Assembly: GCF_003334355.1 (NCBI RefSeq)
Contig: NZ_QOWP01000045.1
Direction: 5' to 3' (one strand)
DNA length: 23,209 nucleotides
DNA from: Escherichia coli
Lineage (GTDB): Bacteria; Pseudomonadota; Gammaproteobacteria; Enterobacterales; Enterobacteriaceae
Shown: one piece after another, positions 3,996 to 12,171 of the stretch
Numbering within the stretch: position 1 is the stretch's first letter
Layout: the number at the start of each line of letters is the position of its first letter
Translations under genes and position numbers: made by a program
Notes under the pieces: generated by a model
Seen by the model: the letters and a program-made list of their open reading frames with translations, nothing else
Database searches by the model: none
What the model was told of the DNA's origin: nothing

Positions 3996-4002
3996 AAATG
4001 AC

Positions 4003-4233
4003 TCAACGTTGTCCCGCTTCTGGTTTGCGCGATTTTTGCCAGTAAAAATGCTCGCGCAAACCTTCCGCCGACTCTTCCGCCACAGCACGCAATTCATCGC
4101 TGTCCGCTTCATGGCGCAGCTGATGATCCACATTCTTTACCCACACAAATTCATGTCCTTTGTGCCCTGCCATGAGTTGTCCTGAGAACAGCGCACACGT
4201 TAATAAGACAACCGATAACGCCTTCGTAAACAT
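4003..4233 (-). CDS. yncJ: Small secreted/periplasmic protein with N-terminal signal peptide (DUF2554-like), 76 aa
   Basis: ORF 4003..4233 minus. ATG at 4233 is preceded by an AGGTGG RBS on the minus strand. N-terminus MFTKALSVVLLTCALFSGQLMA is a classic signal peptide. Matches YncJ from memory. Confidence 0.75.
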   Translation of the reverse strand: MFTKALSVVLLTCALFSGQLMAGHKGHEFVWVKNVDHQLRHEADSDELRAVAEESAEGLREHFYWQKSRKPEAGQR

Positions 4234-4405
4234 CCTGCCACCTTTTTCTTACCTTTTGCCGCTATGATGCCGATCGTTTCTTGAGGTTATTATTCAGTTT
4301 TGCAAATTAGCGCAAAGAAATTCTGGAATCTTCCTTCCTGATTTTGCATGGCATTCTGCCGTTGCGGCGATTTAGTGCTATTTTCGAGCAAATTACACAC
4401 GGAGG

Positions 4406-4423
4406 TAAACACTAATGTTTACT
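4406..4423. promoter_or_regulatory. Palindrome GTAAACA-cta-ATGTTTAC upstream of hicA; candidate HicB operator
   Basis: Read directly: GTAAACA (4406-4412) and TGTTTAC (4417-4423) are reverse complements, about 35-50 bp upstream of the hicA start. The operator role is inference from known autoregulation of type II TA operons. Confidence 0.3.
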
Positions 4424-4454
4424 TTGTTGATATACTCAGCGGCAGGGAGGCGAT

Positions 4455-4631
4455 GTGAAACAAAGCGAGTTCAGACGTTGGCTCGAATCTCAGGGCGTCG
4501 ATGTAGCGAATGGCAGCAACCATTTGAAACTCAGGTTTCATGGGAGGCGCAGTGTCATGCCGCGTCACCCTTGCGATGAGATTAAAGAACCATTGCGTAA
4601 AGCAATCCTGAAACAACTCGGTTTGAGTTAA
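4455..4631 (+). CDS. hicA: HicA toxin (mRNA interferase) of the HicAB type II toxin-antitoxin system, 58 aa
   Basis: GTG start at 4455 preceded by GGGAGG (4445-4450); stop TAA 4629-4631. Translation MKQSEFRRWLESQGVDVANGSNHLKLRFHGRRSVMPRHPCDEIKEPLRKAILKQLGLS is the HicA dsRBD-like toxin. Below the 60 aa track cut-off, so not in the ORF list. Confidence 0.85.
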   Translation: MKQSEFRRWLESQGVDVANGSNHLKLRFHGRRSVMPRHPCDEIKEPLRKAILKQLGLS

Positions 4632-4655
4632 TCGCCAATTAAAAAGGTTAATGAC

Positions 4656-5093
<438 letters not shown>

Positions 5094-5171
5094 TTACAGT
5101 TAACGAAAAGTTGTCATTTTTAACAACTGATATAGACTGCCGAATCATCTGCACATAATTACGATTCGATA

Positions 5172-6578
5172 ATGAAAAAATACCAGCAGCTTGCAGAACA
5201 ATTACGCGAGCAGATTGCGTCGGGTATCTGGCAACCCGGCGATCGTTTGCCTTCGTTGCGTGACCAGGTGGCGCTTTCAGGCATGAGCTTTATGACTGTC
5301 AGCCATGCCTATCAGTTGCTCGAAAGTCAGGGACATATTATCGCGCGACCGCAGTCGGGTTATTACGTTGCGCCACAGGCAATAAAAATGCCGAAAGCGC
5401 CAGTCATTCCAGTCACTCGAGATGAAGCAGTCGATATCAACACCTATATTTTTGATATGTTGCAGGCCAGTCGCGATCCGTCGGTAGTTCCGTTTGCCTC
5501 GGCCTTTCCCGACCCGCGACTTTTCCCCCTCCAACAACTAAACCGCTCGCTGGCGCAGGTAAGCAAAACCGCCACGGCGATGAGCGTGATTGAAAACTTG
5601 CCGCCAGGAAACGCAGAACTGCGTCAGGCTATTGCCCGTCGCTATGCCTTACAGGGCATCACCATTTCTCCTGATGAAATTGTCATCACTGCCGGGGCGT
5701 TAGAAGCATTAAACCTCAGTTTGCAAGCGGTAACTGAACCGGGCGATTGGGTGATAGTAGAGAATCCTTGTTTCTACGGTGCGTTGCAGGCGCTGGAGCG
5801 GCTACGGCTGAAGGCGTTATCGGTGGCGACGGATGTTAAAGAAGGGATCGATCTTCAGGCGCTGGAACTGGCGTTGCAGGAGTATCCGGTGAAAGCGTGC
5901 TGGCTGATGACTAATAGCCAGAATCCACTCGGATTTACCTTAACGCCGCAAAAAAAAGCACAACTGGTGGCGTTGCTCAATCAGTACAACGTAACGCTGA
6001 TTGAAGATGACGTTTACAGCGAACTTTATTTTGGACGGGAAAAACCGCTGCCTGCGAAAGCGTGGGATCGCCACGATGGCGTTTTGCATTGCTCTTCGTT
6101 TTCGAAATGTCTGGTGCCTGGTTTTCGTATTGGTTGGGTCGCCGCCGGAAAACATGCACGTAAAATTCAACGATTGCAGTTGATGAGTACGCTTTCCACC
6201 AGCTCACCGATGCAGCTTGCGCTGGTGGATTACCTTTCCACGCGCCGATACGACGCCCATCTTCGTCGCCTGCGTCGCCAGCTTGCGGAACGTAAACAAC
6301 GTGCCTGGCAGGCACTGCTGCGTTATCTGCCTGCGGAAGTGAAAATTCATCATAATGACAGCGGTTATTTTCTCTGGCTGGAGCTCCCCGAGCCGTTAGA
6401 TGCCGGCGAATTGAGCCTGGCGGCACTGACGCATCATATCAGTATTGCGCCGGGTAAAATGTTTTCTACCGGTGAAAACTGGTCACGTTTTTTTCGTTTT
6501 AATACCGCGTGGCAGTGGGGAGAACGTGAAGAACAGGCGGTAAAACAATTAGGCAAACTTATTCAAGAACGGCTGTAA
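5172..6578 (+). CDS. ydcR: MocR/GabR-type regulator (GntR winged-HTH fused to a PLP aminotransferase-like domain), 468 aa
   Basis: ORF 5172..6578. N-terminus (YQQLAEQLREQIASGIWQPGDRLPSLRDQVALSGMSFMTVSHAYQLLESQGHIIARPQSGYYV) is a GntR-type HTH, followed by a large aminotransferase-like domain. Sits immediately upstream of the ydcSTUV-patD cluster. Confidence 0.85.
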   Translation: MKKYQQLAEQLREQIASGIWQPGDRLPSLRDQVALSGMSFMTVSHAYQLLESQGHIIARPQSGYYVAPQAIKMPKAPVIPVTRDEAVDINTYIFDMLQASRDPSVVPFASAFPDPRLFPLQQLNRSLAQVSKTATAMSVIENLPPGNAELRQAIARRYALQGITISPDEIVITAGALEALNLSLQAVTEPGDWVIVENPCFYGALQALERLRLKALSVATDVKEGIDLQALELALQEYPVKACWLMTNSQNPLGFTLTPQKKAQLVALLNQYNVTLIEDDVYSELYFGREKPLPAKAWDRHDGVLHCSSFSKCLVPGFRIGWVAAGKHARKIQRLQLMSTLSTSSPMQLALVDYLSTRRYDAHLRRLRRQLAERKQRAWQALLRYLPAEVKIHHNDSGYFLWLELPEPLDAGELSLAALTHHISIAPGKMFSTGENWSRFFRFNTAWQWGEREEQAVKQLGKLIQERL

Positions 6579-6742
6579 TAGCGTTTAATTTAATTCCTCT
6601 TAGATTAGGTAATATGAATTTCGAATAGCAGTCATATTTCCTAACTCCTTGACTATACTCCAGAAGATAACCTTACAGACGGCATAATGCGCGGTAGCTC
6701 ACAACCTGATTAAATTTTCTCAGGGGCGAAGGTGTGCCTGCA

Positions 6743-6791
6743 AGCCGCCGTCTATGGTTAAACAAGGAGATATTTTTACGGCACGGCGGCT
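6743..6791 (+). promoter_or_regulatory. 9-bp perfect inverted repeat (AGCCGCCGT ... ACGGCGGCT) in the ydcS upstream/leader region
   Basis: Read directly: AGCCGCCGT at 6743-6751 and ACGGCGGCT at 6783-6791, with a 31-nt spacer, ending about 30 nt before the ydcS RBS (AGGAG 6809-6813). Function is unknown. Confidence 0.3.
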
Positions 6792-6822
6792 GAACAATTA
6801 ATTACGACAGGAGTAAGACCTT

Positions 6823-7968
6823 ATGAGCAAGACATTTGCCCGCAGCAGCCTGTGTGCACTCAGCATGACAATAATGACCGCTCACGCCGCCGAACCGCCT
6901 ACCAATTTAGATAAACCGGAAGGGCGACTGGATATTATCGCCTGGCCGGGATACATCGAACGCGGACAAACCGATAAACAATACGACTGGGTGACGCAAT
7001 TTGAAAAAGAAACAGGTTGCGCGGTGAATGTGAAAACTGCGGCGACTTCCGATGAAATGGTCAGTCTGATGACCAAAGGGGGTTACGATCTGGTTACGGC
7101 ATCCGGCGATGCCTCGCTGCGTTTGATTATGGGCAAACGCGTGCAGCCGATTAATACCGCCTTGATTCCCAACTGGAAAACGCTCGATCCGCGCGTGGTT
7201 AAAGGCGACTGGTTTAACGTGGACGGCAAAGTCTATGGCACGCCATATCAATGGGGTCCGAACCTGCTGATGTACAACACTAAAACCTTCCCGACGCCGC
7301 CGGATAGCTGGCAAGTGGTTTTTGTTGAGCAAAATCTGCCGGACGGCAAGAGCAATAAAGGCCGCGTTCAGGCTTATGATGGCCCTATCTACATTGCGGA
7401 CGCTGCGTTGTTCGTTAAAGCCACTCAGCCGCAGTTGGGCATCAGCGATCCGTATCAACTCACCGAAGAACAGTACCAGGCGGTGCTGAAAGTGCTGCGT
7501 GATCAACATAGTTTGATCCATCGCTACTGGCATGACACTACCGTGCAAATGAGCGATTTCAAAAACGAGGGTGTGGTTGCTTCCAGTGCCTGGCCCTATC
7601 AGGCCAACGCCCTGAAAGCCGAAGGCCAGCCTGTCGCTACAGTTTTCCCGAAAGAGGGCGTTACCGGCTGGGCAGACACCACCATGCTGCATAGCGAAGC
7701 GAAACATCCGGTTTGCGCCTACAAATGGATGAACTGGTCATTAACGCCAAAAGTGCAGGGCGATGTGGCGGCCTGGTTTGGCTCGTTACCAGTCGTGCCG
7801 GAAGGGTGTAAAGCCAGTTCGTTATTAGGCGAGAAAGGTTGTGAAACAAACGGTTTTAACTATTTCGACAAAATCGCCTTCTGGAAAACGCCTATAGCAG
7901 AAGGGGGCAAGTTTGTTCCCTACAGTCGCTGGACGCAGGATTACATTGCCATTATGGGCGGTCGCTAA
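6823..7968 (+). CDS. ydcS: Periplasmic solute-binding protein of a polyamine-type (PotD/PotF-like) ABC transporter, 381 aa
   Basis: ORF 6823..7968 with AGGAG RBS and signal peptide (MSKTFARSSLCALSMTIMTAHAA). First gene of a binding-protein, ATPase, permease, permease array. Confidence 0.9.
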   Translation: MSKTFARSSLCALSMTIMTAHAAEPPTNLDKPEGRLDIIAWPGYIERGQTDKQYDWVTQFEKETGCAVNVKTAATSDEMVSLMTKGGYDLVTASGDASLRLIMGKRVQPINTALIPNWKTLDPRVVKGDWFNVDGKVYGTPYQWGPNLLMYNTKTFPTPPDSWQVVFVEQNLPDGKSNKGRVQAYDGPIYIADAALFVKATQPQLGISDPYQLTEEQYQAVLKVLRDQHSLIHRYWHDTTVQMSDFKNEGVVASSAWPYQANALKAEGQPVATVFPKEGVTGWADTTMLHSEAKHPVCAYKWMNWSLTPKVQGDVAAWFGSLPVVPEGCKASSLLGEKGCETNGFNYFDKIAFWKTPIAEGGKFVPYSRWTQDYIAIMGGR

Positions 7969-7985
7969 CTTCGCTGGGGTGCTTT

Positions 7986-8999
7986 ATGACGTACGCAGTG
8001 GAGTTTGACAACGTCTCGCGGTTGTACGGTGACGTGCGCGCAGTAGATAGCGTCAGTATTGCGATAAAAGATGGTGAGTTCTTCTCTATGCTGGGGCCGT
8101 CCGGCTCCGGCAAAACCACCTGCCTGCGCCTGATTGCTGGCTTCGAACAGCTTTCCGGCGGGGCTATCTCTATCTTTGGTAAACCCGCCAGCAATCAGCC
8201 ACCGTGGGAGCGGGACGTGAATACTGTCTTTCAGGACTACGCGCTATTTCCGCATATGTCGATTCTTGACAATGTCGCCTATGGGCTGATGGTCAAAGGC
8301 GTGAATAAAAAGCAGCGGCACGCAATGGCGCAAGAGGCGCTGGAGAAAGTGGCGTTGGGGTTTGTACAGCAACGTAAACCGTCACAACTTTCTGGTGGTC
8401 AGCGCCAGCGGGTTGCTATCGCCAGAGCATTGGTGAATGAACCGCGCGTATTGCTGTTGGATGAACCGCTCGGCGCACTGGATCTCAAATTGCGTGAGCA
8501 GATGCAGCTGGAACTGAAAAAACTGCAACAGTCTCTCGGTATCACTTTTATCTTCGTTACCCACGATCAGGGCGAAGCGTTATCGATGTCCGATCGTGTG
8601 GCGGTTTTCAATAATGGACGCATTGAGCAGGTCGATTCCCCGCGCGATCTCTATATGCGCCCGCGCACGCCGTTTGTTGCCGGGTTCGTTGGTACATCGA
8701 ATGTTTTTGATGGACTGATGGCAGAGAAACTTTGTGGCATGACGGGAAGCTTCGCCCTGCGACCGGAACATATCCGCCTCAACACCCCTGGTGAACTGCA
8801 GGCCAATGGCACGATCCAGGCGGTGCAATATCAGGGCGCGGCAACTCGTTTTGAACTGAAATTGAACGGCGGTGAAAAACTGCTTGTGAGTCAGGCCAAT
8901 ATGACAGGCGAAGAACTGCCTGCCACGCTCACGCCCGGACAACAGGTGATGGTTTCCTGGTCGCGTGATGTGATGGTGCCGCTGGTTGAGGAGAGGTGA
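7986..8999 (+). CDS. ydcT: ABC transporter ATP-binding protein (PotA-like), 337 aa
   Basis: Walker A GPSGSGKTT, ABC signature LSGGQRQR and Walker B LLLDEP are all readable in the translation. Confidence 0.9.
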   Translation: MTYAVEFDNVSRLYGDVRAVDSVSIAIKDGEFFSMLGPSGSGKTTCLRLIAGFEQLSGGAISIFGKPASNQPPWERDVNTVFQDYALFPHMSILDNVAYGLMVKGVNKKQRHAMAQEALEKVALGFVQQRKPSQLSGGQRQRVAIARALVNEPRVLLLDEPLGALDLKLREQMQLELKKLQQSLGITFIFVTHDQGEALSMSDRVAVFNNGRIEQVDSPRDLYMRPRTPFVAGFVGTSNVFDGLMAEKLCGMTGSFALRPEHIRLNTPGELQANGTIQAVQYQGAATRFELKLNGGEKLLVSQANMTGEELPATLTPGQQVMVSWSRDVMVPLVEER

Positions 9000-9941
9000 A
9001 TGGCGATGAATGTATTGCAATCACCTTCACGTCCAGGTCTGGGTAAGGTGTCCGGTTTCTTCTGGCGTAATCCGGGGCTGGGGCTGTTTTTACTGCTGCT
9101 TGGCCCGCTAATGTGGTTTGGCATTGTCTATTTCGGCTCGCTGCTGACACTGTTATGGCAGGGATTTTATACTTTTGACGATTTCACCATGTCGGTAACG
9201 CCGGAACTGACGCTGGCGAATATCCGTGCGCTGTTTAATCCGGCGAATTACGACATCATTCTCCGCACGCTGACTATGGCTGTGGCAGTCACTATCGCCA
9301 GCGCCATTCTGGCTTTTCCAATGGCGTGGTATATGGCGCGCTATACCAGCGGGAAAATGAAAGCGTTTTTTTATATTGCGGTAATGTTGCCGATGTGGGC
9401 GAGCTACATTGTTAAAGCCTATGCCTGGACGTTATTGCTGGCAAAAGATGGCGTGGCGCAGTGGTTTTTACAACATCTGGGGCTGGAACCACTGCTGACT
9501 GCGTTCCTTACATTACCTGCGGTGGGCGGAAATACGCTGTCAACTTCCGGGCTGGGGCGCTTTCTGGTGTTTCTCTATATCTGGTTGCCGTTCATGATCC
9601 TGCCCGTTCAGGCGGCGCTTGAGCGTTTGCCGCCGTCATTGTTGCAGGCGTCGGCTGATCTCGGCGCACGTCCACGACAAACCTTTCGCTATGTGGTGCT
9701 GCCGCTGGCAATCCCGGGTATTGCCGCTGGCTCTATCTTTACCTTCTCACTCACACTGGGCGATTTTATCGTCCCGCAGCTGGTTGGTCCTCCAGGATAT
9801 TTTATCGGCAATATGGTTTATTCCCAGCAGGGGGCGATTGGCAATATGCCGATGGCGGCGGCATTCACCCTGGTGCCGATTATTCTCATCGCACTGTACC
9901 TGGCGTTCGTGAAACGTCTGGGAGCGTTCGATGCACTCTGA
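9000..9941 (+). CDS. ydcU: ABC transporter permease (PotB-like), 313 aa
   Basis: Hydrophobic multi-TM ORF. Its ATG (9000-9002) directly abuts the ydcT stop TGA (8997-8999), consistent with translational coupling. Confidence 0.9.
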
Positions 9942-10725
9942 ACGCGCACCGTTTTTCCTCAAACTGGCGGCCTGGGGCGGCGTTGTTTTCCTACATTTTC
10001 CCATCCTGATAATCGCCGCCTATGCGTTTAACACTGAAGATGCGGCGTTTAGTTTTCCACCGCAGGGCCTGACGCTGCGCTGGTTTAGCGTGGCAGCACA
10101 GCGTAGTGATATTCTTGATGCAGTGACACTGTCACTTAAAGTGGCGGCGCTGGCGACATTAATCGCGCTGGTGTTAGGGACGCTGGCAGCTGCCGCGCTG
10201 TGGCGACGAGACTTTTTCGGCAAAAACGCCATTTCGCTGTTACTGCTGCTGCCCATTGCGCTGCCGGGCATTGTCACTGGTCTGGCGTTATTAACCGCCT
10301 TTAAAACCATCAATCTGGAGCCGGGATTTTTCACCATCGTGGTCGGTCATGCGACTTTTTGTGTAGTTGTTGTGTTTAACAATGTCATCGCCCGTTTTCG
10401 CCGCACCTCGTGGAGTCTGGTTGAGGCGTCAATGGATCTTGGGGCCAATGGCTGGCAAACCTTCCGCTACGTAGTGTTGCCGAATCTCAGTTCGGCGTTA
10501 CTGGCAGGAGGAATGCTGGCGTTTGCCTTGTCGTTCGATGAAATCATCGTTACGACCTTTACGGCAGGTCATGAACGAACGTTACCGTTGTGGTTGCTCA
10601 ATCAGCTTGGGCGACCGCGTGATGTACCGGTAACTAACGTGGTGGCACTGCTGGTTATGTTGGTAACAACCTTGCCGATCCTGGGGGCCTGGTGGCTAAC
10701 CCGCGAAGGCGACAATGGTCAATAA
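9931..10725 (+). CDS. ydcV: ABC transporter permease (PotC-like), 264 aa
   Basis: Hydrophobic ORF overlapping the ydcU 3' end by 11 nt; second permease of the array. Confidence 0.9.
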
Positions 10726-10746
10726 CCACTGATACAGGAAAATGCT

Positions 10747-12171
10747 ATGCAACATAAGTTACTGATTAACGGAGAACTGGTTAGCGGCGAAGGGGAAAAA
10801 CAGCCTGTCTATAATCCGGCAACGGGGGACGTTTTACTGGAGATTGCCGAGGCATCCGCAGAGCAGGTCGATGCTGCTGTGCGCGCGGCAGATGCAGCAT
10901 TTGCCGAATGGGGGCAAACCACGCCGAAAGTGCGTGCGGAATGTCTGCTGAAACTGGCTGATGTTATCGAAGAAAATGGTCAGGTTTTTGCCGAACTGGA
11001 GTCCCGTAATTGTGGCAAACCGCTGCATAGTGCGTTCAATGATGAAATCCCGGCGATTGTCGATGTTTTTCGCTTTTTCGCGGGTGCGGCGCGCTGTCTG
11101 AATGGTCTGGCGGCAGGTGAATATCTTGAAGGTCATACTTCGATGATCCGTCGCGATCCGTTGGGGGTCGTGGCTTCTATCGCACCGTGGAATTATCCGC
11201 TGATGATGGCAGCGTGGAAACTGGCTCCGGCGCTGGCGGCAGGGAACTGCGTAGTGCTTAAACCATCAGAAATTGCCCCGCTGACCGCGTTGAAGTTGGC
11301 AGAGCTGGCGAAAGATATCTTCCCGGCAGGCGTGATTAACGTACTGTTTGGCAGAGGCAAAACGGTGGGCGATCCGCTGACCGGACATCCTAAAGTGCGG
11401 ATGGTGTCGCTGACGGGCTCTATCGCCACCGGCGAGCACATCATCAGCCATACCGCGCCGTCCATTAAGCGTACTCATATGGAACTTGGTGGCAAAGCGC
11501 CAGTGATTGTTTTTGATGATGCGGATATTGAAGCAGTGGTCGAAGGTGTACGTACATTTGGCTATTACAATGCCGGACAGGATTGTACTGCGGCTTGTCG
11601 GATCTACGCGCAAAAAGGCATTTACGATACGCTGGTGGAAAAACTGGGTGCTGCGGTGGCAACGTTAAAATCTGGTGCGCCGGATGACGAGTCTACGGAG
11701 CTTGGACCTTTAAGCTCGCTGGCGCATCTCGAACGCGTCAGCAAGGCAGTAGAAGAGGCGAAAGCGACAGGGCATATCAAAGTGATCACCGGTGGTGAAA
11801 AGCGCAAGGGTAATGGCTATTACTATGCGCCGACGCTGCTGGCTGGCGCATTACAGGACGATGCCATCGTGCAAAAAGAGGTATTTGGTCCAGTAGTGAG
11901 TGTTACGCCCTTCGACAACGAAGAACAGGTGGTGAACTGGGCGAATGACAGCCAGTACGGACTTGCATCTTCGGTATGGACGAAAGATGTGGGCAGGGCG
12001 CATCGCGTCAGCGCACGGCTGCAATATGGTTGTACCTGGGTCAATACCCATTTCATGCTGGTAAGTGAAATGCCGCACGGTGGGCAGAAACTTTCTGGTT
12101 ACGGCAAGGATATGTCACTTTATGGGCTGGAGGATTACACCGTCGTCCGCCACGTCATGGTTAAACATTAA
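10747..12171 (+). CDS. patD: NAD-dependent gamma-aminobutyraldehyde dehydrogenase (aldehyde dehydrogenase family), 474 aa
   Basis: ORF 10747..12171, 21 nt downstream of ydcV. Aldehyde dehydrogenase hallmarks are readable: catalytic Glu region (ELGGKAP) and Cys region (GQDCTAACR). Matches PatD (YdcW/Prr) from memory. Confidence 0.9.

Follow-up and report, generated by a model that had tools for sequence, protein, structure and literature searches.

ydcR and the ydcSTUV-patD operon of Escherichia coli: a conserved transport and oxidation module and its MocR-type neighbour

The genes ydcR, ydcS, ydcT, ydcU and ydcV are a poorly characterised part of the Escherichia coli genome, and a first guess at the role of such genes is usually taken from their neighbours, an approach that probably misleads here. 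We analysed a 23,209-nt stretch of E. coli DNA (contig NZ_QOWP01000045.1; hereafter the window), in which ydcR, encoding a MocR-type regulator, is followed by ydcSTUV-patD, encoding an ATP-binding cassette (ABC) transporter and an aminobutyraldehyde dehydrogenase. A preliminary description of this DNA had predicted an uptake-plus-catabolism unit for a polyamine or omega-amino aldehyde, with YdcR as its amine-sensing regulator. The unit itself is borne out by tight gene junctions, by a five-gene cassette that recurs across alpha- and gammaproteobacteria and by one promoter-like block, whereas the role given to YdcR does not agree with a published binding assay, the distribution of YdcR boxes or the gene neighbourhoods. 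We consider it probable that the region holds two functionally separate units, the ydcSTUV-patD module and ydcR, which are neighbours in Enterobacteriaceae. YdcR is most likely not the regulator of ydcSTUV-patD but a member of a family with respiratory oxidase genes as targets. Published binding data and comparative genomics contradict the supposed link between them, and the two most likely lie side by side by accident.

Genes of the locus and conservation of the cassette

The window matches thousands of E. coli genomes at 95–100% identity. Its segment 5172–12171 is 100% identical to E. coli PSS-12, and at least 80% of this segment is present in 5399 of 5426 complete E. coli genomes, with identical RefSeq gene names. 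The window is E. coli chromosome, and the locus is the core, already known ydcR/ydcSTUV-patD region. A mechanical listing of open reading frames (ORFs) returned six on the plus strand at exactly the coordinates first proposed (Table 1), and the tight or overlapping junctions that had been claimed were each confirmed to the base by reading the sequence: 244 nt separate ydcR from ydcS (6579–6822) and 17 nt separate ydcS from ydcT, the TGA of ydcT abuts the ATG of ydcU (8997–9002), ydcU and ydcV overlap by 11 nt (9931–9941, ATGCACTCTGA), and 21 nt lie between ydcV and patD.

Table 1. Genes and predicted regulatory features of the region, in window positions.
Feature	Position	Strand	Description and basis
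Predicted YdcR operator	5093-5133	+	Inverted repeat ATTACAG-N27-CTGATAT in the window
ydcR	5172-6578	+	MocR-type regulator; ORF and full-length NCBIfam matches
Dyad-like box, A/T-rich	6612-6627	+	ATATGAATTTCGAATA; about 35-45 nt upstream of the -10; intergenic alignment
Promoter block	6641-6661	+	CTAACTCCTTGACTATACTCC; consensus CTAACTCCTTGTCTATA(C/A)TCC
-10 CTATACT	6653-6659	+	Sigma-S type, C at -13
Leader block AATGCG...GCTCACAACCTGATTAAATTTTC	6686-6719	+	Invariant TCACA/CCT/AAA columns, 53 sequences
Leader block CCGTCTA...GGAGATATTTTTACGGCACGGCGGCTGAA	6748-6794	+	Intergenic alignment
ydcS Shine-Dalgarno region	6806-6816	+	GACAGGAGTAA; invariant GGAGTA columns
ydcS	6823-7968	+	Periplasmic substrate-binding protein, distant PotD/PotF relative; NCBIfam equivalog
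ydcT	7986-8999	+	PotA-like ABC ATPase, TOBE_2 tail; Pfam families read on the K. aerogenes orthologue
ydcU	9000-9941	+	ABC permease, PotB/PotH-like; start abuts ydcT stop
ydcV	9931-10725	+	ABC permease, PotC/PotI-like; overlaps ydcU
patD (ydcW/prr)	10747-12171	+	NAD-dependent gamma-aminobutyraldehyde dehydrogenase; TIGR03374

YdcS reaches its own NCBIfam equivalog (NF041888, 816 bits against a cutoff of 725), and PatD reaches the aminobutyraldehyde dehydrogenase equivalog (TIGR03374, 1034 bits against 909.3). PatD also matches the E. coli structures 1WNB and 1WND over all 474 residues, and a Salmonella structure exists (6C43). A signal peptide spans approximately residues 1–22 of YdcS (N-terminus MSKTFARSSLCALSMTIMTAHA, then AEPP), and the crystal structure 6NLP starts at residue 23. 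Together with YdcT, YdcU and YdcV, whose best named models are PotA, PotB/PotH and PotC/PotI, respectively, YdcS makes up the Pot-type architecture of one substrate-binding protein, one ATPase and two permeases. Its nearest characterised structures are PotF and SpuE, with E-values of only 1e-16 to 1e-19; over PotF, SpuE and PotD together, the E-values run from 1e-10 to 1e-19. Against the named models, YdcS falls far under the cutoffs of PotF (62.6 versus 636 bits) and PotD (47.1 versus 582 bits). We agree with the preliminary description that the true substrate is not deducible from sequence. To our knowledge there is no transport assay for YdcSTUV, which papers call a "putative" or database-derived putrescine importer, and what points best to the substrate so far is that transporter and aminobutyraldehyde dehydrogenase stay paired in two proteobacterial classes. 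The substrate imported by the module would be a small amine linked to putrescine metabolism; PatD would oxidise 4-aminobutanal to gamma-aminobutyric acid (GABA).

To follow the locus across species, YdcS was scanned at one genome per species, and 80 of the 528 loci detected were kept, covering approximately 20 enterobacterial genera. All six genes occur in the same order and on the same strand in 77 of the 80, the other three being cut by contig ends, so the arrangement is not due to chance. The same five-gene cassette is found beyond Enterobacteriaceae, in Rahnella (Yersiniaceae), Aeromonas caviae, Agrobacterium vitis and Thioclava, with YdcS identities of 79, 66, 65 and 59%, respectively, and PatD identities of 61–73%. 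The 11-nt overlap of ydcU and ydcV is kept in Klebsiella aerogenes, Rahnella, Agrobacterium and Thioclava, and patD is the last cassette gene in every locus examined. As the aminobutyraldehyde dehydrogenase gene closes the transporter cassette in both proteobacterial classes, we regard the cassette as a functional module. Directly upstream of it in Rahnella, Agrobacterium and Thioclava stands a LysR-family gene (46–69% identical to one another), and in Aeromonas caviae a split LysR ORF precedes it. With the Rahnella gene as DNA query, a search sensitive to approximately 65–70% DNA identity found no match to the LysR of the cassette in E. coli genomes.

These data support the accepted annotation of ydcSTUV-patD as one old, conserved operon for uptake and oxidation: the genes share a strand, their junctions are short or overlapping, there is one promoter region, and the block is conserved. 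The name "ydcSTUV-patD operon" is used as such in the literature (PMC9321722; PMC11052181), where the genes group together by expression. The 21 nt between ydcV and patD are too few to hold a promoter. An internal patD promoter was also considered and rejected, as the sole consensus match, at 9144–9173 in ydcU, is within the level of shuffled sequence (5 found versus 7.3 expected). The earlier operon inference thus stands and is strengthened by deep conservation, although the locus itself is known.

Several loci depart from the common layout in detail. The Rahnella chromid cassette carries a gamma-aminobutyraldehyde dehydrogenase gene on either side of the transporter genes, before ydcS and after ydcV (L091, 6491–7954 and 12062–13480). 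In the Aeromonas caviae record, a 4.9-Mb "plasmid", the LysR gene and ydcS are both split by frameshifts (L094, 6858–7780 and 8001–8759), which may reflect an assembly error or pseudogenisation. Insertions separate ydcR from ydcS in Trabulsiella odontotermitis (4279 nt; L036, 5722–10000) and Klebsiella indica (2487 nt; L081, 7514–10000). In Salmonella, a clean deletion begins midway through the ydcS leader and takes in everything up to the last of ydcV, and patD directly follows ydcR (L083, 10426–10540; L084, 2555–2690); in the 114–135 nt between ydcR and patD, what is left of the ydcS leader is joined to the ydcV/patD junction. The sigma-S -10 block is decayed there, and the ydcR ORF, 6 codons longer, runs over it.

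The region upstream of ydcS

What may control the operon? The promoter block upstream of ydcS is the single conserved promoter-like block of the operon; it is nearly invariant in 76 of 82 loci and stands at a fixed 150–175 nt from the ydcS ATG. A C at -13, as found in its -10 element, is typical of sigma-S promoters. ydcSTUV-patD would thus be transcribed as one operon from a sigma-S-type promoter of its own, with a leader of approximately 155 nt that holds conserved sequence blocks and no conserved fold. In one paper, ydcS and ydcV are described as RpoS-targeted (PMC6135910), and another cites a Nac dependence of the operon (PMC6053447). The dyad-like box upstream of the -10, which reads CATAGGAAAT-N-GCATAG in other genera, resembles boxes in the lysR–ydcS gap of Agrobacterium (ATATCGGAATTTCCGAAA), Thioclava (GGTATCGGCATTTCCGATACC) and Aeromonas. 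From its sequence it is a candidate site for a LysR-type activator, which fits the reported control by Nac, a LysR-family protein; the box probably serves such an activator, and for E. coli the one reported is Nac. The candidate regulators of ydcSTUV-patD are hence RpoS and a LysR-type factor, for instance Nac.

Downstream of the promoter block, two leader blocks (6686–6719 and 6748–6778) are nearly invariant across approximately 20 genera, and the first is kept even in the Salmonella ydcR–patD gap. No Rfam family matched the window at gathering thresholds, and RNAalifold on 53 ydcS leaders recovered no conserved RNA fold (4 pairs, -6.1 kcal/mol, covariation term -0.07). A structured leader or riboswitch in 6579–6822 was rejected on these grounds, the 4-bp hairpin being the only element and showing no covariation. 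As conservation is at the level of sequence, with no conserved fold or covariation, the blocks suggest protein binding sites. Two further candidates in the leader were set aside: an E. coli inverted repeat (AGCCGCCGT at 6744–6752 and ACGGCGGCT at 6782–6790) is not kept in other genera, and a leader peptide from the ATG at 6757 (MVKQGDIFTARRLNN, then a stop) has no ATG at that place in other genera.

In most genera other than Escherichia, the last 16 nt of the second leader block (E. coli 6779–6794) read CGGCACGGCTGCCGC, which lies approximately 28 nt before the ydcS ATG and fits the sigma-54 pattern GG-N10-GC (-24/-12). A sigma-54 promoter was rejected for E. coli, where the same stretch reads CGGCACGGCGGCTGAA and has no -12 GC, a difference that holds Escherichia-wide. 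ydcS is absent from an E. coli sigma-54 chromatin immunoprecipitation sequencing (ChIP-seq) table that does list patA (PMC4591121), and the main texts of a sigma-54 genomic SELEX (gSELEX) paper (PMC8743547) and of a paper on Nac and acid resistance (PMC5217608) do not mention these genes.

Neither a terminator scan nor folding revealed an intrinsic terminator between E. coli ydcR and ydcS (6579–6822); the scan also missed long-loop hairpins in Citrobacter that folding showed. In most genera outside Escherichia, a hairpin and then a T-run follow ydcR. A terminator-like hairpin (ACCGGTGAAAACTGGT, then CACGTTTTTT) lies inside the 3' end of E. coli ydcR, at 6468–6493, approximately 95 nt before the stop.

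YdcR, its predicted operator and the oxidase neighbour

YdcR combines a GntR winged helix-turn-helix domain with a fold-type-I aminotransferase-like domain and matches MocR-like NCBIfam models over its full length (residues 4–459). The best of these are of the PdxR/YczR type, at 265 bits versus 121 bits for GabR, and GabR and PdxR-like structures in the PDB match the protein as well (GabR chains at 1e-22). PF00392 and PF00155 were found on YdcR homologues at 98–99% identity as well as on the Salmonella orthologue. The protein carries an SFSK motif with Lys312, which is kept in a Vibrio homologue of 53% identity, and Pfanzelt et al. 2022 (PMC9321722) show loading of YdcR with pyridoxal 5'-phosphate (PLP) by intact-protein mass spectrometry. 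YdcR thus has the domain layout, the PLP lysine with PLP binding and the repeat-type operator near its own promoter that mark a MocR protein.

That operator emerged from phylogenetic footprinting over 24 genera with differing upstream genes, where ATAACAGTT-N22-CTGATATA is the sole conserved feature in the 260 nt 5' of ydcR. This genus-wide consensus is an inverted repeat of ATAACAG (ATAACAG-N27-CTGATAT), and in a pattern search its top match in the whole window, with 1 mismatch, is the predicted operator in front of ydcR, which overlaps a sigma-70-like promoter (TTGTCA-16-TAGACT, 5111–5138). The site lies inside a fragment 5' of ydcR that YdcR shifts from 50 nM in the electrophoretic mobility shift assay (EMSA) of Pfanzelt et al. 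2022 (PMC9321722); the published primers map to window 5057–5259 and span 203 bp, a minor discrepancy with the 189 bp given in the paper. In the same assay, the 244-bp ydcR–ydcS fragment served as the negative control, which contradicts the proposed binding of YdcR in 6579–6822. Our pattern search likewise gave no match in 6579–6822 at up to 3 mismatches. The nearest candidate, CTTACAG (6672–6678)-N27-CTGATTA (6706–6712), has 4 mismatches and a left half that is not conserved, and we rejected it as an operator.

Across the loci, box density is 13.5/kb in the 150 nt upstream of ydcR and 13.95/kb in the 150 nt upstream of cioA, with at least two boxes in 73 of 80 and 54 of 65 loci, respectively. 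In the 250 nt upstream of ydcS it is 0.74/kb, with two or more boxes in 0 of 81 loci, and in the rest of the loci it is 0.24/kb, again with no locus that reaches two. In loci with more than 400 nt between the cioA and ydcR starts, at least two boxes are still found before cioA in 34 of 42 and before ydcR in 41 of 42. A perfect ATAACAGTT also lies upstream of K-12 ylaC. Boxes thus stand before ydcR, the cio operon and ylaC, and never in pairs before ydcS, which argues against YdcR as the regulator of the operon. The second-best match in the window, ATATCAG-N21-CTGAAAT at 8828–8862 inside ydcT (2 mismatches), is probably due to chance, as many 3-mismatch matches are present.

The gene cioA belongs to a cytochrome-bd-type oxidase operon (Cyt_bd_oxida_I, Cyt_bd_oxida_II and DUF2474), the third of this type in these genomes, which is divergent to ydcR in 64 of 80 enterobacterial loci and in K. 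aerogenes. This is the classic arrangement of a MocR regulator and its target. The operon is absent from the window beside ydcR (approximately 4000–5170), from all four Escherichia species and from Salmonella; in Escherichia, yncJ, usually then hicAB, abuts the ydcR operator in its place. A cio operon of this kind is likewise divergent to the gene of the 53% identical Vibrio homologue, with two ATAACAG boxes; other homologues at 47–49% identity adjoin a FixG-like gene or an Rnf/Nqr-family gene. Beside the Vibrio and other distant YdcR homologues examined, no ABC transporter/aldehyde dehydrogenase cassette was found. Outside Enterobacteriaceae, cassettes thus follow LysR and YdcR homologues adjoin respiratory genes, so the conserved partner of the cassette appears to be LysR and that of YdcR the oxidase, a pairing that does not fit YdcR as the operon's regulator.

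Literature on the orthologous group points the same way. The regulog of Suvorova and Rodionov (2016) groups b1439 with PA4132, gives ylaC and cydAB-like genes as enterobacterial targets and contains neither ydcS nor patD (PMC5320631), again at variance with the regulator role first proposed. PA4132 (MpaR) of Pseudomonas aeruginosa is cyanide-responsive and requires an ATCTGAT palindrome (PMC10790758), and Salmonella YdcR directly controls the virulence gene srfN. Since the divergent oxidase target is absent in Escherichia and present in 64 of 80 loci and in Vibrio, E. coli YdcR looks like an orphaned member of the YdcR/MpaR group.

The hicAB toxin–antitoxin pair (window region 4656–5133, hicB 3' end) lies directly against the ydcR operator, and the hicB stop codon (5091–5093) overlaps the first base of YdcR box 1 (5093–5099). 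At this position hicAB occurs in E. coli, E. whittamii and one further Escherichia species, and sporadically in Citrobacter; E. albertii has no hicAB here and keeps a short sequence like the hicB 3' end.

Regulator, operon and comparison with known systems

Taken together, the evidence favours two units side by side. YdcR would bind the inverted repeat over its own promoter and, as the repeat lies there, would autoregulate; in most enterobacteria it would also control the divergent operon cioA-cioB-DUF2474 for a cyanide-insensitive-type cytochrome bd oxidase. Escherichia would have lost the cio operon, with hicAB now abutting the operator, and after this loss YdcR would have its own promoter left, together with remote targets like ylaC.

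Several observations weigh against such a separation. In all enterobacterial loci sampled, ydcR and ydcS are neighbours with a shared orientation, and Salmonella keeps ydcR directly upstream of patD after the loss of ydcSTUV; this universal adjacency and the Salmonella arrangement could reflect selection for linkage and not only inheritance. The short E. coli gap lacks a terminator-like hairpin, and transcription may therefore read through from ydcR. The effectors in the EMSA were PLP and putrescine only, on the ydcR promoter fragment only (PMC9321722). The cio target is gone from the E. coli genome, and the cyanide response was shown for MpaR only (PMC10790758). Finally, the assignments of transcription start, sigma-S and Nac draw on resemblance to known motifs and on second-hand citations.

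Could the two units be coupled through transcription, without YdcR binding nearby? In Escherichia and Salmonella, transcripts from the YdcR-controlled ydcR promoter or from hicAB might run into ydcS or patD. The terminator-free gap of E. coli, with no strong hairpin at its start, unlike most genera, would allow this, co-transcription of hicAB and ydcR has been suggested (PMC5120126), and in Salmonella the decayed -10 block, overrun by the extended ydcR ORF, leaves patD only 114–135 nt further on. However, the promoter block and leader before ydcS are strongly conserved, which argues that the main start lies there; other genera insulate ydcR by hairpins and T-runs, and a supplementary figure in the literature draws separate promoters. 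We consider such read-through coupling unlikely.

Direct regulation, in which YdcR would be the dedicated regulator of ydcSTUV-patD, sensing putrescine, GABA or 4-aminobutanal via PLP and binding in the ydcR–ydcS gap, finds little credence with us. GabR and other MocR regulators use PLP to sense amino compounds, and YdcR itself binds PLP. The constant adjacency and shared orientation of ydcR and ydcS also speak for it, as do the correct spacing of the look-alike at 6672–6712 and a single CTGTTAT box at -68 from the ydcS ATG in some genera. Against these stand the negative-control status of exactly the 244-bp gap fragment, the lack of paired boxes upstream of ydcS in all 81 loci, the mismatched and unconserved left half of the look-alike, the separate partners of cassette and YdcR outside Enterobacteriaceae, and the place of ydcS and patD outside the published regulog.

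Least probable of all is that YdcSTUV is not mainly an amine importer, with YdcS acting as a periplasmic short-chain poly-3-hydroxybutyrate (PHB) synthase, or with YdcS and YdcV forming a double-stranded DNA uptake route, and patD as a passenger. Both activities, mentioned in the preliminary description, are indeed in the literature (PMC6135910), which cites PHB synthase activity (Dai and Reusch 2008) and natural transformation reduced 6.7-fold and 9.5-fold by mutation of ydcS and ydcV, respectively (Sun 2016), but the same text gives only a minor effect of ydcT inactivation on transformation, YdcS is by sequence a standard type-II binding protein with PotF and SpuE as nearest structures, and binding protein, ATPase, two permeases and aminobutyraldehyde dehydrogenase form a fixed cassette from alpha- to gammaproteobacteria, which ties the selected function of the transporter to amino-aldehyde or amine metabolism.

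Within the preferred reading of two separate units, a more detailed history can be put forward tentatively. E. coli YdcR may be an orphaned orthologue of cyanide-responsive MpaR-type regulators, whose ancestral divergent operon for a cyanide-insensitive-type cytochrome bd was deleted in Escherichia and Salmonella, and which survives through autoregulation and rewired distant targets (ylaC; srfN in Salmonella), with no part in amine uptake. The cassette may descend from a LysR-controlled module whose LysR-type box is served by Nac in enterobacteria without the cognate LysR, and YdcS may recognise a mono-amine or amino-aldehyde and not a diamine. Better aims for work on YdcR are its own promoter, ylaC and signals from cyanide or respiration, as well as the cio-type operon in Citrobacter and Klebsiella. 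This redirection of experiments is the useful outcome of the analysis, and the identity of the locus is unchanged.

Compared with the E. coli K-12 locus, ydcR (b1439) and ydcSTUV-patD (b1440–b1444; RefSeq, EcoCyc, RegulonDB), the window has the same genes, order and junctions; there is no structural difference, and only the regulatory reading departs from the preliminary description. Rahnella, Agrobacterium vitis and Thioclava carry their LysR-ydcSTUV-patD modules on chromids or plasmids, and Aeromonas caviae has such a module too; the five structural genes are those of E. coli in the same order, with an orthologous LysR gene where Enterobacteriaceae have ydcR.

The E. coli polyamine importers PotFGHI and PotABCD share with YdcSTUV the substrate-binding protein, ATPase and two permeases, but an aldehyde dehydrogenase in the operon is found for ydcSTUV-patD only. 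In PotF, we take D39, E185, D247 and D278 to be the acidic ligand residues that clamp the diamine. YdcS keeps aromatic positions equivalent to PotF W37, Y40, W244 and F276 plus the acidic D278, whereas in the HMMER alignment, at approximately 20–25% identity, E185 and D39 are matched by a Tyr and a Gly, respectively, and D247 lies in a deletion. As only D278 of the acidic clamp is kept, a diamine-type pocket is not evident, a hint that the YdcS pocket may not clamp a diamine.

Among regulators, Bacillus subtilis GabR, the archetypal amine-sensing MocR, has the domain layout, PLP lysine motif and repeat-type operators in common with YdcR. GabR is divergent to gabTD, binds in front of gabTD and senses GABA; YdcR, unlike GabR, is co-oriented with ydcS and has no operator there. 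MpaR (PA4132) and YdcR are both MocR-type PLP-domain regulators that the published regulog puts in one orthologous group, both autoregulate, and their regulog targets are terminal-oxidase or respiratory genes. The CTGAT of the MpaR palindrome ATCTGAT recurs in the enterobacterial boxes CTGATAT/ATATCAG. They differ in that E. coli is without the adjacent oxidase target and that the known direct target of Salmonella YdcR is srfN.

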